NCBI GenBank assembly: GCA_964641545.1
Contig: CAZXLT010000001.1
Location: 84,218-148,217 of the forward strand
Reading direction: 5' to 3'
Source of the DNA: an uncultured Candidatus Saccharibacteria bacterium
GTDB lineage: Bacteria; Patescibacteriota; Saccharimonadia; Saccharimonadales; AWTP1-31
DNA: 64,000 nucleotides
Positions 20,522 to 29,149 of this stretch are shown here, piece after piece; within the stretch, counting starts at the first letter, position 1, and every line of letters begins with the position of its first letter. The notes below the pieces were generated by a model. The model worked only from the letters and a program-made list of their open reading frames with translations, was not told the origin of the DNA and did no database searches. Position numbers and translations under genes: made by a program.

Positions 20522-20533
20522 TGTCGTTACCAA

Positions 20534-20561
20534 CAAAAAAGTCTTTGGTTGCACCAAAGAC
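20534..20561 (-). terminator. Rho-independent terminator upstream of the rplJ leader
   Basis: On the - strand: GTCTTTGGT-GCA-ACCAAAGAC (9-bp perfect stem) followed by TTTTTTG. Confidence 0.65.
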
Positions 20562-20640
20562 AAAGAGTTTTACCTCGGTAGCAGATTAAGGCTTTGAATA
20601 TTCAAGACCAGCTACTGTCTTTAGTAACGATATAGCAATT

Positions 20641-21168
20641 TTACACGGTCTCGAGTGTTCTGTCAACAGGGGCGGGACGAACACTTGAACGCAGTGCAGA
20701 CCAAGCGTGAAGATCAGGATTAGGAAGGCCCCAGCGGTCGAGTTTCTCGAACGGAGTTGAGCCGTCTTTCATTAGCGCCCGATTTCGCCCAACTCGTATC
20801 ATCATAGAGGCTTCAGCTCCCAGCATGTCCTCGTCGCAGTCACGGTACACAGTTTCGAATGCACGCAAGACACCTTGAGCAAGTACATCAACATCTTCGA
20901 ATTCAAATGTCACTACACCTCCCCGGCGGACGGCAATATGTGAGTATAGGTTTTCAATCTTCTGGGCTGCCTCAAACAACGGAGCGCATACCGGCTCTTC
21001 GGAAGCTGCGGCGAGACCTACTAAGAAATCAGTAATCCCGTGTGCAAACTTTTGTCGTTCTTCCCCGTCCATTTTAACTACTGTACTGACAATAGCTATG
21101 TCAAACTCGTTTACGACACTATTGGGGCTCCAGACTGCTGCTCGTACTGGTTGTGAACATTCTGCCAT
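20641..21168 (-). CDS. Hypothetical protein (175 aa), orphan, visibly GC-richer than neighbours
   Basis: AAGGAG lies 5 nt upstream of the ATG at 21168. No recognised motif. Confidence 0.5.
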   Translation of the reverse strand: MAECSQPVRAAVWSPNSVVNEFDIAIVSTVVKMDGEERQKFAHGITDFLVGLAAASEEPVCAPLFEAAQKIENLYSHIAVRRGGVVTFEFEDVDVLAQGVLRAFETVYRDCDEDMLGAEASMMIRVGRNRALMKDGSTPFEKLDRWGLPNPDLHAWSALRSSVRPAPVDRTLETV

Positions 21169-21182
21169 ATATCTCCTTTTAC

Positions 21183-21214
21183 ATTAAAACGACCTCTCGG
21201 CGGTGAGAGGTCGT
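21183..21214 (-). terminator. Intrinsic-terminator-like hairpin just upstream of the SD of the 175-aa ORF
   Basis: On the - strand: ACGACCTCTC-ACCGCC-GAGAGGTCGT (10-bp perfect stem) followed by TTTTAAT, then AAGGAG-ATG. Confidence 0.5.
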
Positions 21215-21293
21215 AATTTTAAGCAAATATCGACATCAGCCGCTGGTGCGGGTGGTAATGATGTTGATACTGATGCTTTTGAACATGTTGTTT

Positions 21294-21321
21294 ATGGTAC
21301 TCTTTATTTTTCGTAAGTCAA
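21294..21321 (-). promoter_or_regulatory. Candidate sigma70-type promoter (TTGACT-16 nt-TACCAT)
   Basis: On the - strand: -35 TTGACT (21321-21316) and -10 TACCAT (21299-21294). Located directly after the stop of the 102-aa ORF. Confidence 0.35.
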
Positions 21322-21328
21322 CAAGCTC

Positions 21329-21637
21329 CTACACACCGTTAGCAACCGGGTCAAAGGCTTGGTAGTCGACGACGGGCTTTGCCCTGTCGGCTTCGCCTTC
21401 TGTGCCAGAATAGGCAACGATTATGCTGGTCTGTATTGCCACTGCTCCGCGTTCGGCGTCACTAAATGCTCCCGTGTTGCTCATGTCTGCTGCTGTACCT
21501 ACTGCAGTTTCATTTACTGGATGGCGACCCAGGGCATCGACGAACCATTCGAACTGGGGATCGCCTGGGCCTCCTTTGGGTCCATCTTCTGGACGTATTC
21601 CATATCTTTGTCCACTGCTCATTCTTCCTTTTCCCAT
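21329..21637 (-). CDS. Hypothetical small protein (102 aa; MGKGRMSSGQ...)
   Basis: GGAAGGA lies about 10 nt upstream of the ATG at 21637. The longer track ORF (to 21799) would read through an intrinsic terminator, so the shorter start is preferred. Confidence 0.4.
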   Translation of the reverse strand: MGKGRMSSGQRYGIRPEDGPKGGPGDPQFEWFVDALGRHPVNETAVGTAADMSNTGAFSDAERGAVAIQTSIIVAYSGTEGEADRAKPVVDYQAFDPVANGV

Positions 21638-21659
21638 TGTGCTATATTCCTTCCAAATT

Positions 21660-21685
21660 AAAAAAATCAGGCGGTGAAGCCTGAT
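21660..21685 (-). terminator. Rho-independent terminator ending the rplK-rplA-nucleotide-module transcription unit
   Basis: On the - strand: ATCAGGC-TTCACC-GCCTGAT followed by TTTTTTT. Confidence 0.65.
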
Positions 21686-21845
21686 TGGTTCTGGCTGTGC
21701 GGGTGGCGCCTTTGTTGGTGAGGGGCGCTCAGGCTTCAACCAAACTGAAGCACAGCCTTTGTAGTCTGAGGCTGAGCAGGAGCTGTTGGTTGAATACAAT
21801 ACTCATAAAAGCTAATCGTACCACCGCAAAAAAATGTTGTAAAGA

Positions 21846-24203
21846 TTATTTTTGCTGACTTGCTTGTTCGTCAAGTTGTGCCAGTTTGTACTGTGTGTAT
21901 TTTTCGGCTGCCAAACGGGTTAGCTCTTCGTCTTCACCTTGGTTTACGAACTTCATAGCTTCCGCAGTCAACGGATGAACTTCGGCTACTTTTTCGTGCA
22001 TTTGCTGAACAAGTTTTCGATAACCCGGGTGACCTTGAGGGCTGGTACGTAGCTCATGAAAGTGGAATGCTTCACGTGCATTATATGTAAGTTTCCAGCG
22101 CATCTTATGACCAAGCAGTGTAGCGTACTGCGCTTCGAGTTCGTACCCCTTACTTTGTAAGTAGCTGTACAGTTCGGCGCTAATATCAAAACATTTTTCA
22201 AATAATTCACTAAGTCCAGCTTCTTCGACCAAGGCAGGAATTTCGTATCCAAACCGTGGTGTTAGTTGTTGCCACTCTAGGTCGTCCACCATGCGGTGAC
22301 GCTGTAAATCACGAAAGATGCCATAGTCGCACACTAAATCCCAACTGTAGTGAATTTTTTCCAGCGCTCTACCGGGTTTGTGACGGCGATTTAACCGTTC
22401 GCCCATATAGGCCAGGAATGCTTTTTGTTTTTGACTATATGACCAGCCACTAACTGCTGATTGCATTTCTTGTAAAGATAAATTGGAATGTTCATACAAC
22501 ATGTCCGGAACAATATCCAGCTCGTTACGTGGCCAGAAGCTATTGAGGCTAACGGCTTCGTGGTCGCTACTATGCACGGCAGGCAACATTTCTTTAGCAA
22601 CTTCGCGAACGGCTTTTGCGGTCTGCGCCCGATACGCAATTATTGCTCCGCCCCGATCGGGTTTGTCGGCGCGTTCTAGAAACGTTGGGATAATTTTGCG
22701 CGCCTGCTCGAGGAGCTGCTGACCGATCGAACGGGCCTCGACCAGCTCGTCGCTTAATAGATGCATGATGAGGCTTTCGAGTGCCTGACCAGATGCGTAA
22801 ATACCAACCGTTGCTGTGGTGGCAACTGGTAATACTGAACGAATCGCGTCGCAAGCCTGCGCGCGGGTTGCTCCCTTCCATGCGGTGTCTTGTTCTTCCT
22901 TAGGGACGGAAGAGTTGCTGCGTACGTAATCGGTCAAACGATGTACCATTTCGGAGTACAGGTCAAAAATAGTATTGAGTGCATGCTCGTAGCGTTGTGC
23001 CGTTTCGTCGTCTAGGTTTTTGGGCGTGTGGTATTTGTAGCGTCCGTCATCTTTGGTGTCGAAATAAATATAACGTGTTGACTGCTCAAGGTATGCGGCC
23101 AGTCGTCCCCACTCCAGCTTCTTGGTCATGATGTTGCTGCCCTTTTCGACAACCAGGTGCAACCCAACAAGCTGCTGTACAGAGTCGTCCCCATAGGCGG
23201 TTATCACGCGCTGCAGTAATTTCTCGTCCTTGCCTGCAGCGGCAGCAAATTCGTCCAAAATGGTTATGCGCATATCATCACCGCGTCGGCTCAGACGTGC
23301 CATGGCTGCTGCGATTGTTGTAGAACTAAGTGCGTCAGTAAATGCATAAACATTCCCCTGGCTTGTGGTTACTGATTTTGCAAGGAAGTCTTCACCAAGT
23401 GGCGTAACAACATAATTTCCGTTTTCATCTTTTGACACAAACGATTCATTCGCGGTTGGTTTGGCTATAGAACTCGCAGCTGAAGCAGGCTTCTGTACAG
23501 CAGAGGGCGCAGGCAACATTGGTTGTATGCTGGCCCACAACATATCACCTACTACTTCTTTGCTCAACAGCGCCCCGCCCCGCACGCAATCGATGCGGTG
23601 GAAGTCTTTTGGAAAGAGTGAACACAGGTCGTCGTAAACTTCGACGCTGCGGCGTAAGTGGTTTATGTCGTCTTCGTGCAGGTCCCGCTTTTTGTCTGTG
23701 TAGCTGCGCGTTTCTTTTTTATCAACCATTTGCTGGGCGATTTCTGCGGGCACTCGTAACACAAAACTTTTAGTTGGTCGTGGGATTTGAAGCATTACGA
23801 ACTCAAGATTGTCTAACCAAATGAAGTACCCGCGTCGCTCCTCGGCATTTGCAAATTTTGTGCCTTGGTGAGCCATATTGCTACCAGTAAAGCGATTTGC
23901 AAGCACAATTTTGCCGTCTGCAAGTGCTTCGCGAATTTTATGAGCTGCTTGGTATCTATCGAGTGCATAAAACAACGACCCAGTGTATGGACCAACAGCT
24001 TCTGCTGACCCGTACGCACCATTTAAATATTCTTTTACAAAAAAACTAGAAGGTTCGTCGTACTGCGGAAAGTCGAAGGTTACAACATCATGCCCAGCAT
24101 CCGATAAGCGCTTGCGGAGTAAGTCAAACTGTGTGCCCTTACCCGAACCGTCGGTCCCTTCAATGACTAAAAATAATCCATTGTTTTCATTGTTTAATGC
24201 CAT
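21846..24203 (-). CDS. tmk/thyX: Fusion of thymidylate kinase (N-terminal about 210 aa) with a tandem (two-half) flavin-dependent thymidylate synthase ThyX-like region
   Basis: N-terminus LFLVIEGTDGSGKGTQ (Tmk P-loop) plus ANRFTGSNMAHQ. First ThyX-like half: EWGRLAAYLEQSTRY. Second half: GIFRDLQRHRM ... LTPRF ... FHFHELRTSPQGHPGYR. Compare the Thermotoga ThyX motifs [21 protein letters not shown] and LRADSHAQWEI. Confidence 0.85.
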   Translation of the reverse strand: MALNNENNGLFLVIEGTDGSGKGTQFDLLRKRLSDAGHDVVTFDFPQYDEPSSFFVKEYLNGAYGSAEAVGPYTGSLFYALDRYQAAHKIREALADGKIVLANRFTGSNMAHQGTKFANAEERRGYFIWLDNLEFVMLQIPRPTKSFVLRVPAEIAQQMVDKKETRSYTDKKRDLHEDDINHLRRSVEVYDDLCSLFPKDFHRIDCVRGGALLSKEVVGDMLWASIQPMLPAPSAVQKPASAASSIAKPTANESFVSKDENGNYVVTPLGEDFLAKSVTTSQGNVYAFTDALSSTTIAAAMARLSRRGDDMRITILDEFAAAAGKDEKLLQRVITAYGDDSVQQLVGLHLVVEKGSNIMTKKLEWGRLAAYLEQSTRYIYFDTKDDGRYKYHTPKNLDDETAQRYEHALNTIFDLYSEMVHRLTDYVRSNSSVPKEEQDTAWKGATRAQACDAIRSVLPVATTATVGIYASGQALESLIMHLLSDELVEARSIGQQLLEQARKIIPTFLERADKPDRGGAIIAYRAQTAKAVREVAKEMLPAVHSSDHEAVSLNSFWPRNELDIVPDMLYEHSNLSLQEMQSAVSGWSYSQKQKAFLAYMGERLNRRHKPGRALEKIHYSWDLVCDYGIFRDLQRHRMVDDLEWQQLTPRFGYEIPALVEEAGLSELFEKCFDISAELYSYLQSKGYELEAQYATLLGHKMRWKLTYNAREAFHFHELRTSPQGHPGYRKLVQQMHEKVAEVHPLTAEAMKFVNQGEDEELTRLAAEKYTQYKLAQLDEQASQQK

Positions 24204-24904
24204 CGAGCTTTTAAACCTTCAATCTCCACCGGTTTACGTCGTTTATCTTTATAGGCCCGCGGCAGCATTTGGTCTGGTGACCAATTTTCTATAATTGCGC
24301 GCAAGTCCTGGCTGGCGGCGGGCTGATATTTGCCGCTTAAATTGGCGTACTCTTCCTCAACCGGTCCAGTTTCATAAAACACTAATTGAGCAATGCGCTC
24401 CCCGACAGGCAACACGACACTTTCGTGTTGGTTCATGTTATAGATCTCCATGGTCCAGCGGTTGATGTATCCGGGGTCGCCCCAGCCAGCATCTAGGCAA
24501 ACGGCAACACCGTTTCGACCCCAAGTACTACGGGCCTGCATGGTACTGGTACCAGGTGCCTTTATTCCTATAAATTCATGCGTGTGAGCCAGAATTCGCT
24601 CGCCGGGCCTGAGAACAATAATCGGCTGATCGGCTGGGATATTCTCGAACAGTTGCCGCCCGTGTTTGTTTGCCCAGTCTTGGTGAATCTCTGCCTTTAG
24701 GGCGCCGCTGAAATATTGGTTTACTGCAAACTCATCGAACGGGTTATAAAAGCCTCCCTCGCTTGGGCGCTCGGTGCGGTAATACCAGTTGCCTAACGTC
24801 ACATCGATGCTACTGCCGGCAATATGGCGTTCGATAAATGGATGAAAAACAATATGACCTTCGTCAATCGCCTTTTTTATTTGGACGTTGCTGTATACCC
24901 CCAC
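24194..24904 (-). CDS. dcd: dCTP deaminase family protein (Dcd or bifunctional Dcd-dUTPase type), GTG start
   Basis: Colinear with E. coli Dcd: IKKAIDEGHIVFHP, GSSIDVTLGN, LRPGERILAHT, ARSTWGRNGV, GWGDPGYINRWTMEIYN, LPVGERIAQLVF. GAGGAG SD lies before the GTG. Its stop overlaps the tmk/thyX start by 10 nt. Confidence 0.85.
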   Translation of the reverse strand: MGVYSNVQIKKAIDEGHIVFHPFIERHIAGSSIDVTLGNWYYRTERPSEGGFYNPFDEFAVNQYFSGALKAEIHQDWANKHGRQLFENIPADQPIIVLRPGERILAHTHEFIGIKAPGTSTMQARSTWGRNGVAVCLDAGWGDPGYINRWTMEIYNMNQHESVVLPVGERIAQLVFYETGPVEEEYANLSGKYQPAASQDLRAIIENWSPDQMLPRAYKDKRRKPVEIEGLKARWH

Positions 24905-25008
24905 AAAATCTCCTCGTGGATATAGTTTACGAGATTTTTTGCCTTTCTGACAAGCTTATGCGTATATATTACAACTTAGTTTTTGCTACAGATTACAGGT
25001 GTTACGTT

Positions 25009-25767
25009 CTATGCTTTTGCAGCCTGGTACGCAGCTTGTAGCCGGTTGGCTACAAGGTCGGCGTGCAGTTGGACTGATATCGTCATAAGGTCTTGTAGAC
25101 TTCCGTTATTGCTAATTTTTGTATCCACTGCAATACGCGTACGTTCGCGCTCAGTTGGATCGGACTTGTCCATGATCGTTGCACCGGCTCTGGTTATTTT
25201 GAGTACCCTGCCACCTGCGGCGTGCAAAATATCTCCGTCACTGGGAAAGCGCACCCCACCGATAATAAACAATTGGCATCCCTGACTTTCAGCAACACGG
25301 GCGCGGCGAATCAGCTCGTTATACCAAATACCACGATCAACATGGGTTACGCAGTAGCCGCCAATCCACTGCAACAAGCTGCGGTAGGCCGCTTTGTTCT
25401 TTGCGCCAATACGCTCTGTCAGTAATTTTGGCTCATGACGTGCAATGTATATGTACTCTAACAATTTCTCGTAATCGGTCGGCTGCAGACGCATATCGTG
25501 ATCGTTCAACACGAGCTTTGCGTGGTCAATCCGGCTGTTAGTGACCGATTCTAGTATCCCCGGTAAATGACTGAGCCACCTATTAACACTTTCTAGATCA
25601 GCCTCGTTCGGGGACTCCCACAAGAAAAACTTGTTGAGTCGATCTGCCACTTCGGCAACCACTTGGCTTGTCTCGGCCTGCTGGGCAGTAGAATCTTGTT
25701 GTGCAAGATAATTGGCAAGCGTTGTTTTGCCGTGTCCAATTGGACCAGTTATCCCAACTAAAACCAT
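25009..25767 (-). CDS. P-loop kinase resembling phage T4 gp1 deoxynucleoside-monophosphate (dNMP) kinase
   Basis: Walker A ITGPIGHGKTT. The C-terminal two thirds align by eye with T4 gp1: RSLLQWIGGYCVTHVDRGIWYNEL vs RRLMQALGTDLIVNNFDRMYWVKL; FIIGGVRFPSDGDILHAAGGRVLKITRAG vs YIVPDTRQDHEMDAARAMGATVIHVVRPG; ISNNGSLQDL vs ITNDGSLEEL. Confidence 0.6.
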   Translation of the reverse strand: MVLVGITGPIGHGKTTLANYLAQQDSTAQQAETSQVVAEVADRLNKFFLWESPNEADLESVNRWLSHLPGILESVTNSRIDHAKLVLNDHDMRLQPTDYEKLLEYIYIARHEPKLLTERIGAKNKAAYRSLLQWIGGYCVTHVDRGIWYNELIRRARVAESQGCQLFIIGGVRFPSDGDILHAAGGRVLKITRAGATIMDKSDPTERERTRIAVDTKISNNGSLQDLMTISVQLHADLVANRLQAAYQAAKA

Positions 25768-26810: not shown

Positions 26811-27125
26811 TTACAAACCTACTGTTGGTGCTGGGCTAGTCCCGGCATCAGGTATCGTTTCGACTGCTCGCTCTGTGACCCTGTCTGCCACAGTTGTGGC
26901 TGCGGCGCTTAAATTGCCTATGCTTAGCGCTAAATCTCTGCGCAGTTCATCGGCTTGCTCGTTTCCATTGTCGCCAAGCCTTTCAAGAATACCAAGCATG
27001 TCAGGGACCGGACCATTTAAAAGTGCGGCTGCTTTCTTGAAGATAGTTGTCGCATCGTCTACGTCCAAGCGTAGTCGGGTAGTGACTTCGCTCGCAGCAG
27101 CAGTAGCCGGTCCGTAATGACCCAT
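26811..27125 (-). CDS. Hypothetical ORF (104 aa) occupying the rplK-rplA spacer
   Basis: The ATG lies 3 nt after the rplK stop, with GAAGG upstream. The region is GC-rich and also has an 80-aa antisense ORF, so its coding status is uncertain. Confidence 0.35.
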   Translation of the reverse strand: MGHYGPATAAASEVTTRLRLDVDDATTIFKKAAALLNGPVPDMLGILERLGDNGNEQADELRRDLALSIGNLSAAATTVADRVTERAVETIPDAGTSPAPTVGL

Positions 27126-27128
27126 TTG

Positions 27129-27563
27129 CTAGCCTTCGATCTCTACGCCCATGCTGCGCGCGGTACCAGCAACCATTTTCTTAACAGCTGGAATATCGTC
27201 AGTATTCATATCATGAGCTTTCGCTTCGGCGATTTCGGTTAATGCCTGGTCACTCAGTTTTTTTGGAATCTTTTCGCTGTTAGGCTTGCCCGAACCTTTT
27301 TTAATACCAAGTTTGGCACGGATCAAATCGTCGGTTGGTGCGCCGACTACACGGAACTCCATAGATCGGTCGTCGTAGATCACGATATGAGCTGTGACCG
27401 TTGCGCCCTGCATATCCTTAGTAGCCTCGTTAAACGGATTAATAAAGTCCATCATGTTGACTCCATACTGACCAAGTGTGCTACCAACCGGTGGTGCGGC
27501 ACTCGCACGACCAGCAGGAATTTTCATCTTCAGGTTAGCTTTAACCTGTTTTTTGTCTGCCAT
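27129..27563 (-). CDS. rplK: 50S ribosomal protein L11
   Basis: KMKIPAGRASAAPPVGSTLGQYGVNMMDFINPFN, typical of L11. Confidence 0.95.
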   Translation of the reverse strand: MADKKQVKANLKMKIPAGRASAAPPVGSTLGQYGVNMMDFINPFNEATKDMQGATVTAHIVIYDDRSMEFRVVGAPTDDLIRAKLGIKKGSGKPNSEKIPKKLSDQALTEIAEAKAHDMNTDDIPAVKKMVAGTARSMGVEIEG

Positions 27564-27634
27564 AGCTACTGTTCTCCATTAGTTGATTAGATTGCATTTG
27601 TCGGTGAAGCATCCGACATGTGCGTAACACAACG

Positions 27635-27663
27635 ATTATACTACAGCTTACCTCTGTTGTCCA
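27635..27663 (-). promoter_or_regulatory. Candidate promoter of the rplK-rplA unit (TGGACA-17 nt-TATAAT)
   Basis: On the - strand: -35 TGGACA (27663-27658) and a perfect -10 TATAAT (27640-27635), about 70 nt upstream of the rplK ATG and just downstream of a strong terminator. Confidence 0.5.
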
Positions 27664-27676
27664 CTAGTTTCACCTT

Positions 27677-27703
27677 AAAAAAAGAGCACCAACATGGTGC
27701 TCT
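27677..27703 (-). terminator. Rho-independent terminator after the 117-aa ORF
   Basis: On the - strand: AGAGCACC-ATGTT-GGTGCTCT (8-bp perfect stem) followed by TTTTTTT. Confidence 0.7.
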
Positions 27704-27725
27704 TTGAAAAAACTCAATGATTTTG

Positions 27726-28079
27726 TTAACCGCGGCGTCGTGCACCAAACACAATCAACGCGTCAGCTGCTAGAGTACCAGCTGCTAACGGAATTTCTGG
27801 AAGTGCTGGAGCGCTTGAAAGCTCACCTTGCTCGCCATCTGCGGTAACGACGCTAGTTGTTTCCCAAAAATAGTTGTTTACAACAGTTTCAGTGCCCCCG
27901 CCGGCTGTAGGTGTAGTGGTCACGCCATCATGCAAGCCGCGAATTCCTAATACAACGCCAGCTGTTAGCGCAAGAACACCTGCGCCTACCATTAGCCAGT
28001 TTGGTCCGTGGTTAGGGTTATGTTGTCGTGGTGCTTGGTTCGGTTGGGCTGGGCCCTGTGGGGGGAAAGGTTGTGTCAT
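27726..28079 (-). CDS. Small membrane/surface protein (117 aa) with an N-terminal anchor and a C-terminal tripartite sorting-signal-like tail
   Basis: P/Q/N-rich N-terminus, then TM segment WLMVGAGVLALTAGVVLGI. The C-terminus is LPEIP-LAAGTLAADALIVFGA-RRRG: a motif, a hydrophobic stretch and a basic tail. Confidence 0.5.
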   Translation of the reverse strand: MTQPFPPQGPAQPNQAPRQHNPNHGPNWLMVGAGVLALTAGVVLGIRGLHDGVTTTPTAGGGTETVVNNYFWETTSVVTADGEQGELSSAPALPEIPLAAGTLAADALIVFGARRRG

Positions 28080-28114
28080 ATCTTATAAACTCCTTACAAA
28101 ACTTTAAGAGCTAT

Positions 28115-28143
28115 ATATTAACAAAAATAAGCATTATTGTCAA
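28115..28143 (-). promoter_or_regulatory. Near-consensus sigma70 promoter (TTGACA-17 nt-TAATAT) with a palindrome over the -35
   Basis: On the - strand: -35 TTGACA (28143-28138) and -10 TAATAT (28120-28115). The inverted repeat CATTATTG-T-CAATAATG (28132-28148) is centred on the -35 hexamer. Confidence 0.55.
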
Positions 28144-28174
28144 TAATGTTTCTAAAGAAGTTTTTACGCTTACG

Positions 28175-28717
28175 CTACACTCGTTTTACTTGCAAACCAT
28201 CTAGTTCTACCGGTGTTTCGCGACCAAACATGTTGACCAAGACCTTTAGCTTGCCTTTAGCTGCGTCAATCTCGTTAATAGAACCATCGAAACCTTTGAA
28301 TGGTCCATCAATGATATTGACCACTTCACCTTCTTTGAAGTCGATATTGTGCTTCGGTTGGCTTAGCCCCATGCGCTTGTTGATCTTGTCCATTTCGTCC
28401 TGGCTAACGGGTGTAGGATCCGTGCCGCTACCGACAAATCCGGTTACTGATGGAGTGTTACGCACAATGTACCAGGCATCTTCGCTCAGTTTCATTTCCA
28501 CCAGCACATAGCCCTGGAAGATACGCTTTTCAACGACTTTTCGTTTGCCGTTCTTGATCTCGATCATTTTTTCTTTTGGTACCAATACCTGAAAGATTTT
28601 ATCTTTCATATCTAGCGAGTCAGCGCGCTGGCGAATACTCTCTGCCACTTTTTCTTCATAACCACTGTAGGTGTGGATGGCGTACCATTGTTTGCTGGTG
28701 TCATATCGTTTTGTCAT
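28175..28717 (-). CDS. nusG: Transcription termination/antitermination factor NusG
   Basis: WYAIHTYSGYEEKV (NGN domain) and KOW motif GEVVNIIDGPFKGFDGSINEID. Confidence 0.95.
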   Translation of the reverse strand: MTKRYDTSKQWYAIHTYSGYEEKVAESIRQRADSLDMKDKIFQVLVPKEKMIEIKNGKRKVVEKRIFQGYVLVEMKLSEDAWYIVRNTPSVTGFVGSGTDPTPVSQDEMDKINKRMGLSQPKHNIDFKEGEVVNIIDGPFKGFDGSINEIDAAKGKLKVLVNMFGRETPVELDGLQVKRV

Positions 28718-28735: not shown

Positions 28736-29149
28736 CTAGTTTAGTAATAGCTGTTTAAATACTTTGTCGAGTCCGTAGTCTACCACTGTAATCAGTGTGC
28801 TAAAAACTATGGCAAACACAAATACGGCTGTTGTAAGTTGGCGGGTTTCTCGACGCGTTGGCCAGGTTACCTGGCGAACCTCTCGCCAAGAGTTCCGAAC
28901 GTACGAGAGTAACAAAATGCTTGCCAGAACTCGGCCAATAAAGCGAACGGGACGGGTTTTAAACGGCCAAAGCAAGAAACGCAGGGGTCGAAACAGTCTT
29001 GCGACTGCGAGTACTGCGGTTTTTGCAGGAGTTGCCGCTTTTGTTGCGGCAGCTCGTAATCGACGCGGTTTGGCAGCTTTTTTGCTGGCAGTTTGCGTTT
29101 TTGTTCGCACTGTTTCGGCTGGTTTTCGCATTCGTGGTGCTTTTGGCAC
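28736..29149 (-). CDS. secE: Preprotein translocase subunit SecE with a long basic N-terminal extension (GTG start)
   Basis: C-terminal WREVRQVTWPTRRETRQLTTAVFVFAIVFSTLITVVDYGL is the canonical SecE TM region. AGGAG lies 6 nt before the GTG. Confidence 0.85.
   Translation of the reverse strand: MPKAPRMRKPAETVRTKTQTASKKAAKPRRLRAAATKAATPAKTAVLAVARLFRPLRFLLWPFKTRPVRFIGRVLASILLLSYVRNSWREVRQVTWPTRRETRQLTTAVFVFAIVFSTLITVVDYGLDKVFKQLLLN

Follow-up and report, generated by a model that had tools for sequence, protein, structure and literature searches.

An open reading frame (ORF) of 117 amino acids, ORF117, lies between nusG and rplK in the 64-kb stretch of DNA analysed here (the window), which comes from an uncultured Candidatus Saccharibacteria bacterium. 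We suggest, with a probability of roughly 0.6, that ORF117 encodes a fast-evolving two-helix small membrane protein of a Saccharibacteria sub-clade and forms the last unit before the rplK promoter. A model that had examined the letters without database searches (the sequence-only reading) had proposed a self-contained, probably strongly expressed gene whose product ends in a sorting-signal-like tail. The self-contained gene is borne out, as ORF117 has its own strong-looking promoter, ribosome-binding site and terminator, and the whole unit is conserved in sister lineages. The sorting signal fared poorly, given that no model matches it, the motif is not conserved, and the window holds neither a sortase or exosortase nor a second such tail. 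The elements that had been named, i.e., the ORF, AAGGAG, TTGACA-17-TAATAT, the palindrome and the terminator, are all present, in minus-strand orientation, at the following positions.

28132..28148, no strand assigned: perfect palindrome of 8+1+8 nt, CATTATTG-N-CAATAATG, over the -35 element, from a palindrome scan
28115..28143, minus strand: promoter TTGACA (28143-28138)-17-TAATAT (28120-28115) with a TGn extended -10, consensus-scan score 10/12
28090..28095, minus strand: Shine-Dalgarno sequence AAGGAG, 10 nt before the ATG
27726..28079, minus strand: ORF117, predicted small membrane protein of 117 amino acids, ATG at 28079-28077, stop codon at 27726-27728
27930..28004, minus strand: hydrophobic helix 1, residues 26-50 (core W28-I46), from hydropathy
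27798..27929, minus strand: acidic Thr/Gly-rich middle, residues 51-94, from the sequence
27789..27803, minus strand: LPEIP, residues 93-97, from the sequence
27741..27797, minus strand: hydrophobic helix 2 with Asp106, residues 95-113, from hydropathy (helix 97-113 in a structural model, low confidence)
27729..27740, minus strand: basic C-terminal end RRRG, from the sequence
27677..27705, minus strand: intrinsic terminator, stem 27681-27691 / 27695-27705 (11 bp), 3-nt loop, U7 at 27677-27683
27635..27663, minus strand: rplK promoter TGGACA-17-TATAAT, score 11/12, directly after the ORF117 terminator

A codon-usage log-likelihood trained on 38 long ORFs of the window gave ORF117 a score of 0.28 bits per codon, compared with 0.25 +/- 0.10 for the long genes, and all five other frames were negative. 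The G+C content at codon positions 1/2/3 was 0.69/0.55/0.37, which is a coding pattern. No Rfam family was found over the ORF117 region, and an RNA gene there was rejected on the same zero Rfam matches. Neither flanking direct repeats nor a compositional break marks ORF117 as an insertion. Judged by these signals, ORF117 is a genuine native gene with its own predicted signals for transcription start, ribosome binding and termination. The terminator had been described as an 8-bp perfect stem followed by seven U; the U tract stands, and the 8 bp (GAGCACCA/TGGTGCTC) are only the G+C core of a stem of 11 bp. Its centroid energy is -15.7 kcal/mol (z = -3.1), and none of 200 shuffles folded equally well. 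No terminator was found between nusG and the ORF117 promoter, and ORF117 is therefore likely also the last cistron of the secE-nusG transcript, with its terminator ending the operon. An imperfect 16-nt direct repeat (13/16) was noticed inside ORF117 at 27778-27793 and 27958-27973; one copy encodes L-A-A-G of helix 2 and the other L-T-A-G of helix 1, and the repeat may be the trace of an internal duplication, or it may be chance.

The unit recurs in two sister lineages. We compared the window with a set of 165 related loci (L001-L165), of which L001 is a Logan copy of the window (checked to be 100% identical) and two groups, L027/L128/L162 and L143/L163-165, are sister lineages by rplK identity (96-97%). 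In the slot between nusG and rplK, the former group carries an ORF of 184 amino acids (ORF184) and the latter an ORF of 107 or 108 amino acids behind a 68-amino-acid ORF. The window and both lineages share the same layout, i.e., TTGAC(A/T)-17-TAATATAT, AAGGAGTT, the gene, a terminator of its own and the rplK promoter. L027 and L163 retain the AAGGAGTT of the Shine-Dalgarno site in their orthologous units, and equivalent terminators follow the counterpart genes in both. Each of the eight loci of these groups (L001, L027/L128/L162, L143/L163-165) has a single copy of the promoter pattern TTGACW-N17-TAATATAT, always before the slot gene, and the 157 other loci have none; within the 64-kb window the pattern occurs once even when one mismatch is allowed (expected 0.06). 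Gene order in L163 equals that of the window, and the aligned products range from weakly to strongly conserved: AAA kinase (67% identity), YgjP (50%), histidine kinase (68%), SecE (50%), NusG (88%), the slot gene, L11 (97%), L1 (74%), a deoxynucleotide monophosphate kinase (DNMK)-like protein (43%), dCTP deaminase (91%) and a Tmk-ThyX protein. With neighbour identities spanning 43-97%, a loss of detectable similarity is to be expected for a weakly constrained small protein.

The counterparts show the substitution pattern of protein-coding genes. Between L143 and L163, the 108-amino-acid gene has a ratio of non-synonymous to synonymous substitution rates (dN/dS) of 0.20 (dS 0.43). ORF184 differs between two strains by 6 synonymous and 2 non-synonymous changes (dN/dS about 0.11), and rplK in the same comparison gives 0.016. 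The two counterpart proteins were found on 14 and 11-18 contigs from different samples. These patterns indicate that the counterparts are real proteins under purifying selection, with amino acids changing at an estimated 20 times or so the rate of L11. All three proteins share a hydrophobic helix 1, an acidic loop of about 50-70 residues that is rich in Thr, Gly and Asp, a hydrophobic helix 2 with an embedded Asp, and a basic end. The context of this Asp and the protein end read AADALIVFG ... RRRG in ORF117, AIDLGLAAG ... RRRK in ORF184, and ASDVLLAAG ... REED (RKED in the 107-amino-acid form) in the L143/L163 protein; the C-termini of the counterparts are RRRKNNASNDQV and GRKED/GREED. Located close to the C-terminus, A-x-D-x-[LG]-[LI]-x-x-G, a pattern defined post hoc, occurs in 0 of 4902 control ORFs. 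The case for orthology is made because position, conserved regulatory DNA and architecture coincide. Taken this way, one sub-clade would have kept the expression signals of the slot gene (promoter, ribosome-binding site, terminator) and the architecture of its product, with the protein sequence drifting beyond recognition.

Several results weigh against this interpretation. BLASTP of ORF117 against the counterparts was not significant, hhalign gave the pair a probability of 1.6%, and when the hidden Markov model (HMM) of the counterparts was scored on ORF117, 150 of 1000 shuffles that keep the architecture reached the real score, so that the protein sequences do not prove ORF117 to be homologous to the counterparts. 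The structural model is of low confidence (AlphaFold2, mean predicted local distance difference test (pLDDT) 57), and autonomous insertion of helix 2, which is short and contains an Asp, is doubtful. The sole hint of homology is QPFPPQGP in ORF117 and QPLPPQGP in ORF184, within the low-complexity Pro/Gln-rich N-termini (Smith-Waterman z = 3.7; 3 of 300 shuffles reach the score). The outcome of the conservation check proposed by the sequence-only reading is thus mixed: the unit and the architecture are kept in two sister lineages, but protein homology cannot be demonstrated and the palindrome is absent.

Searches for relatives at large returned ORF117 alone. A word-indexed search of 5.8 billion proteins and an exhaustive phmmer search over 1.84 billion cluster representatives found only the protein itself, as did a metagenome contig scan, and tblastn in the 165 related loci gave no relative. 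Overall, no homologue of ORF117 was detectable among about 15 billion proteins, and nothing significant was found in Pfam, NCBIfam or PHROGs. Two copies were recovered, one from NCBI (a 154-kb contig) and one from a Logan assembly (100% identical). The counterparts offer no bridge to ORF117, given that ORF184 of L027 is a singleton in the protein search and the L143 protein retrieved only close relatives at 86-94% identity.

The protein itself begins with MTQPFPPQGP, contains the peptide MTQPFPPQGPAQPNQAPR and ends in ...VFGARRRG. It has two hydrophobic segments of membrane length (26-50 and 95-113). The 19-residue hydrophobic core of the first comes after 27 polar residues and looks like a signal anchor; the AlphaFold2 model, built from the single sequence, places a helix at 24-52 (10-residue block-mean pLDDT 66-79) and a weak, low-confidence beta hairpin at 64-77. 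The loop R47-E95 contains 7 acidic residues and 1 basic residue, and hydropathy averages 1.79 over the 16 residues that precede RRRG. Net charges are +1 at the N-terminus, -6 in the inter-helix loop and +3 at the C-terminal end, a distribution that fits the positive-inside rule for an N-in/C-in protein; both ends are therefore predicted to be cytoplasmic and the loop to be outside. The gene signals, the native codon usage, the conserved unit, the purifying selection on the counterparts, the two hydrophobic helices and the charge distribution are shown here; we infer this topology, a common origin of the three proteins and any function. In the course of events that we propose, the gene's own promoter would drive ORF117 transcription, probably supplemented by read-through from secE-nusG. 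The Pro/Gln-rich N-terminus would stay in the cytoplasm and helix 1 (28-46) would cross the membrane, leaving the acidic Thr/Gly-rich loop of about 48 residues outside, and helix 2 (about 97-113, with Asp106) would lead back into the membrane with RRRG inside. The hydrophobic stretch and its basic end would then constitute a second membrane helix, anchored in line with the positive-inside rule, and not a cleavable signal. The protein would most likely serve as an envelope component with a fast-changing exposed loop, in which Asp106 might serve helix-helix contact or oligomerisation.

The sequence-only reading had taken LPEIP, the following helix and RRRG for the tripartite layout of sortase or exosortase substrates. 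Sortases cut at Thr-Gly/Ala/Asn, and the accepted variants are LPXTG, LAXTG, LPXTA and NPQTN. LPEIP has Ile instead of Thr at position 4 and Pro instead of Gly, Ala or Asn at position 5. None of the sorting-signal models (LPXTG, PEP-CTERM and others) was hit: no Pfam family matched the ORF117 protein at E <= 1, and no NCBIfam family matched either the whole protein or its 30-residue tail at E <= 10. The counterparts carry unrelated sequence before the last helix (DNEISDFAKVIG and GPTERGWALIRTG), and LPEIP is not conserved; they do keep the Asp and a Gly inside the helix, and features of the basic end. Here the helix residues are kept and the motif position is not, whereas a helix destined for removal should show the reverse. 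Our searches of the organism's own genome for sortases, for similar tails and for the palindrome cover the 64-kb window. A scan for sortase catalytic motifs in its 82 non-overlapping ORFs found none, apart from a PIG-L deacetylase that matched by chance; no sortase or exosortase domain was present among the 26 ORFs scanned with Pfam, and no second protein with an ORF117-like tail among the 82. The likeness to a sorting signal is only a general one, shared by every C-terminal membrane helix that ends in basic residues.

The palindrome over the -35 had been proposed as an operator. It has no second copy in the window and none in the 165 related loci, and it was accordingly rejected as the site of a regulon. 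In the orthologous promoters, the right arm, which lies within the spacer region, differs. Taken by itself, the palindrome is unremarkable: three of the eight arm pairs come free with the self-complementary TTGACAA, and the window contains 10 perfect palindromes with arms of 8 bp or more and spacers no longer than 3, compared with 3.8 in shuffles. The operator reading is not supported by these comparisons, and the palindrome appears to be lineage-specific.

Four other explanations were weighed against a two-helix membrane protein. Helix 1 might be a cleavable signal peptide, in which case ORF117 would be a type I, tail-anchored surface peptide with a mature product of about 70 residues and no transpeptidase involved. 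The L143/L163 counterpart indeed begins with a standard-looking signal peptide (MSRGRG, 18 hydrophobic residues and VSA-W), helix 1 of ORF117 is followed by VLG-IRG, and what lies outside and inside would be the same as in our preferred explanation. In ORF117 and ORF184, however, 27-70 polar residues precede the first hydrophobic segment of 19 residues, and a long polar N-terminus with such a segment fits a signal anchor better than a cleaved Sec signal peptide; we consider this variant unlikely. A pore-forming or membrane-perturbing protein (holin, toxin or viroporin), repressed through the palindrome, would agree with the two membrane helices, the probable inside location of both ends, the charged C-terminus and the intramembrane Asp, and the perfect palindrome does overlap the -35. 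Class II holin loops are much shorter than the loop of about 48 residues found here. Nothing in the PHROGs phage library matched below E = 0.17, the palindrome is unique and lineage-specific, and no phage, antitoxin or regulator genes adjoin ORF117. Given also its location in a housekeeping operon and the ordinary purifying selection on its counterparts, such a function is very unlikely.

Cleavage of the LPEIP-helix-RRRG tail by a sortase, by an exosortase-type enzyme or by some unknown transpeptidase of the Candidate Phyla Radiation (CPR), with attachment of the Thr/Gly segment to the wall or a lipid, would account for a tripartite layout that is really present. Saccharibacteria have a Gram-positive-type envelope, which speaks for such a process. 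Sortases also occur in more than half of CPR genomes (PMC6744442). Yet the motif has no Thr-Gly, no sorting-signal model matches, the positional counterparts lack the motif and keep the residues inside the helix, no enzyme or second tail turned up in the two window scans, and the exported part would be just about 45 residues long; we rate this a shade less probable again than a pore-former. At the far end, the ORF could be an accident, with the promoter and terminator bracketing a non-coding RNA or merely ending the secE-nusG transcript. The failure to find a homologue anywhere fits that view, as does a hypervariable junction in which most ORFs of the relatives are mutually unrelated. But codon usage is positive only in the frame of ORF117 itself, a consensus ribosome-binding site stands at the right distance, the counterparts have dN/dS values of 0.1-0.2 and Rfam gave no match, making an accidental ORF extremely improbable.

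The two-helix membrane protein that we favour shares traits with several known systems and coincides with none. Like sortase substrates (PF00746, TIGR01167), ORF117 combines a hydrophobic segment near the N-terminus and a short exported part with a C-terminal hydrophobic stretch that leads into basic residues, and sortases are common in the group to which its organism belongs. Unlike them, it has LPEIP with no model match, a motif that its counterparts do not keep, a conserved Asp in the hydrophobic stretch and no sortase in the window. PEP-CTERM systems have many substrates per genome, with exosortase and polysaccharide genes adjoining, and are found mostly in diderm bacteria; VPEID-CTERM is a related type of C-terminal sorting domain. 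ORF117 resembles these domains in its P-E motif, the approximately 16 hydrophobic residues and the terminal Arg cluster, but it matches no NCBIfam or Pfam model and is a single protein with no exosortase in the window. The two-helix hairpin proteins of monoderms (actinobacterial CrgA, class II holins) are similar in their length of about 100 residues, two helices, both ends probably cytoplasmic and a basic C-terminal end; they differ in that there is no sequence similarity, and ORF117 has an acidic Thr/Gly-rich loop of about 48 residues, a Pro/Gln-rich N-terminus and another genomic location. A resemblance to F-ATPase subunit c, whose Gly/Ala-rich hairpin has a carboxylate in its second helix, was examined and dismissed, given the lack of a Pfam match and the loop of about 48 residues. 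In another Saccharibacterium, Ca. Mycosynbacter amalyticus, C-terminal membrane helices are reported to anchor envelope proteins without a sortase (bioRxiv 10.64898/2026.03.03.709456), a precedent for our reading. Like ORF117 as we read it, PamC, PamD and PamR of that organism are Sec-secreted and held in the membrane by a C-terminal helix; they are large, folded, chaperone- or FnIII-like proteins of a pilus operon, whereas ORF117 is tiny and has no recognisable domain.

The genomic setting of ORF117 is variable in itself. The 80 best nusG relatives in a collection of species-representative genomes (86-96% identity) are overwhelmingly metagenome-assembled genomes of Candidatus Saccharibacteria / Saccharimonadales. 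Both nusG and rplK are present in 135 of the 165 loci, and the gap between them ranges from 6 to 3343 bp (median 418), with fewer than 150 bp in just 30 loci, so that the junction is not the normally tight one that had been assumed. In E. coli and Bacillus, a terminator follows the nusG transcript at the boundary between secE-nusG and rplKA, and the rplK promoter and leader come directly after it. In contrast, the clade of ORF117 has an extra gene with an internal promoter between nusG and the terminator, and the spacer varies across the phylum from 6 bp to 3.3 kb. The slot ORFs of the relatives are mostly mutually unrelated (105 ORFs in 102 clusters), and none resembles ORF117. A recurring two-helix theme in the slot was dropped as an idea, with 24.7% of slot ORFs and 20.3% of random ORFs fitting a crude definition of it (p = 0.29). 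Many of these ORFs end in RQQG or DNRG because the reading runs into the rplK promoter. Several relatives also have another small ORF (68-93 amino acids) within a few nt of the nusG stop, with two Gly/Ala-rich, weakly hydrophobic segments (L163 3703-3909; L143 49-255; L084 1777-2040; L082 1937-2218; L064 4552-4770). The 68-amino-acid form has a dN/dS of 0.13 between L143 and L163, and the window has no such ORF.

The genes on either side of the ORF117 unit are listed below.

28736-29149, minus strand: secE
28175-28717, minus strand: nusG
27129-27563, minus strand: rplK
26811-27125, minus strand: ORF of 104 amino acids
25801-26754, minus strand: rplA

The downstream border of the unit is the rplK promoter, and related sequences lie upstream of rplK in the relatives (three-way alignment). 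Promoter and leader are conserved in the relatives examined (window 27564-27663, minus strand; L027 5194-5305; L163 4391-4490), in the order GACAACAG(A/G)GGTA, GTAGTATAAT, GTTACGCAC and a hairpin with the loop A(U/A)GCUUCA. Covariation is seen in the stem of this hairpin (GUCGG/CCGAC, GCCGG/CCGGC, GCUGC/GCAGC, GCCAG/CUGGC), and the rplK leader, which has no Rfam match, may be an L1 or L11 autoregulatory leader. In most bacteria, rplK and rplA are adjacent. Here, the 104-amino-acid orphan ORF starts 3 nt past the rplK stop and has gene-like codon usage (0.29 bits per codon); it has no match in Pfam or NCBIfam, and its exact sequence minus the final residue is absent from the protein collection. 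Its place is taken by unrelated small ORFs in L082 (3435-3677) and L084 (2551-2829) and by nothing in L163, and L047 has a weak homologue (34% identity, E = 7e-6).

Other departures concern the neighbours themselves. The Pfam domain of L1 (25801-26754, minus strand) starts at residue 120, behind a Lys/Glu/Ala-rich N-terminal extension of about 100 residues, and SecE (28736-29149, minus strand) has a basic N-terminal extension of about 80 residues, with its Pfam domain from residue 82. About 5 kb (20526-25767, minus strand) are inserted between rplA and the L10 leader (20526-20642), comprising the DNMK-like protein (25009-25767), dCTP deaminase (24194-24904), a 785-amino-acid thymidylate kinase-ThyX fusion (21846-24203) and two ORFs without a family (21329-21799 and 20641-21168). 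The distant relative L163 has the kinase, the deaminase and the fusion after rplA in the same order as the window.

Two points may be of use in work on Saccharibacteria: the drift of the slot protein in one sub-clade under conserved expression signals and architecture, and the hypervariability of the nusG-rplK junction throughout the phylum, where unrelated small ORFs fill the slot. The content of the rplK-rplA junction is likewise variable among the few close relatives examined, where unrelated small ORFs fill it, and the genes around both junctions stay 86-97% identical. ORF117 could also be one allele of a strongly expressed, very fast-evolving surface-loop protein that Saccharibacteria maintain in this slot and whose acidic Thr/Gly-rich loop serves contact with the host bacterium or escape from recognition by host or phage; relatedly, the slot might breed new small membrane protein genes because it is always transcribed, or, for a smaller share, the tail might be a new sorting signal for an undescribed CPR transpeptidase. 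We hold this wider scenario to be rather improbable. If the reading of ORF117 as a fast-evolving two-helix membrane protein is true, it would lengthen by one entry the list of lineage-restricted small membrane proteins from uncultivated episymbionts, a result of modest interest. A small envelope protein that is strongly promoted, exposed and fast-changing would nevertheless be a reasonable candidate for a part in host specificity.

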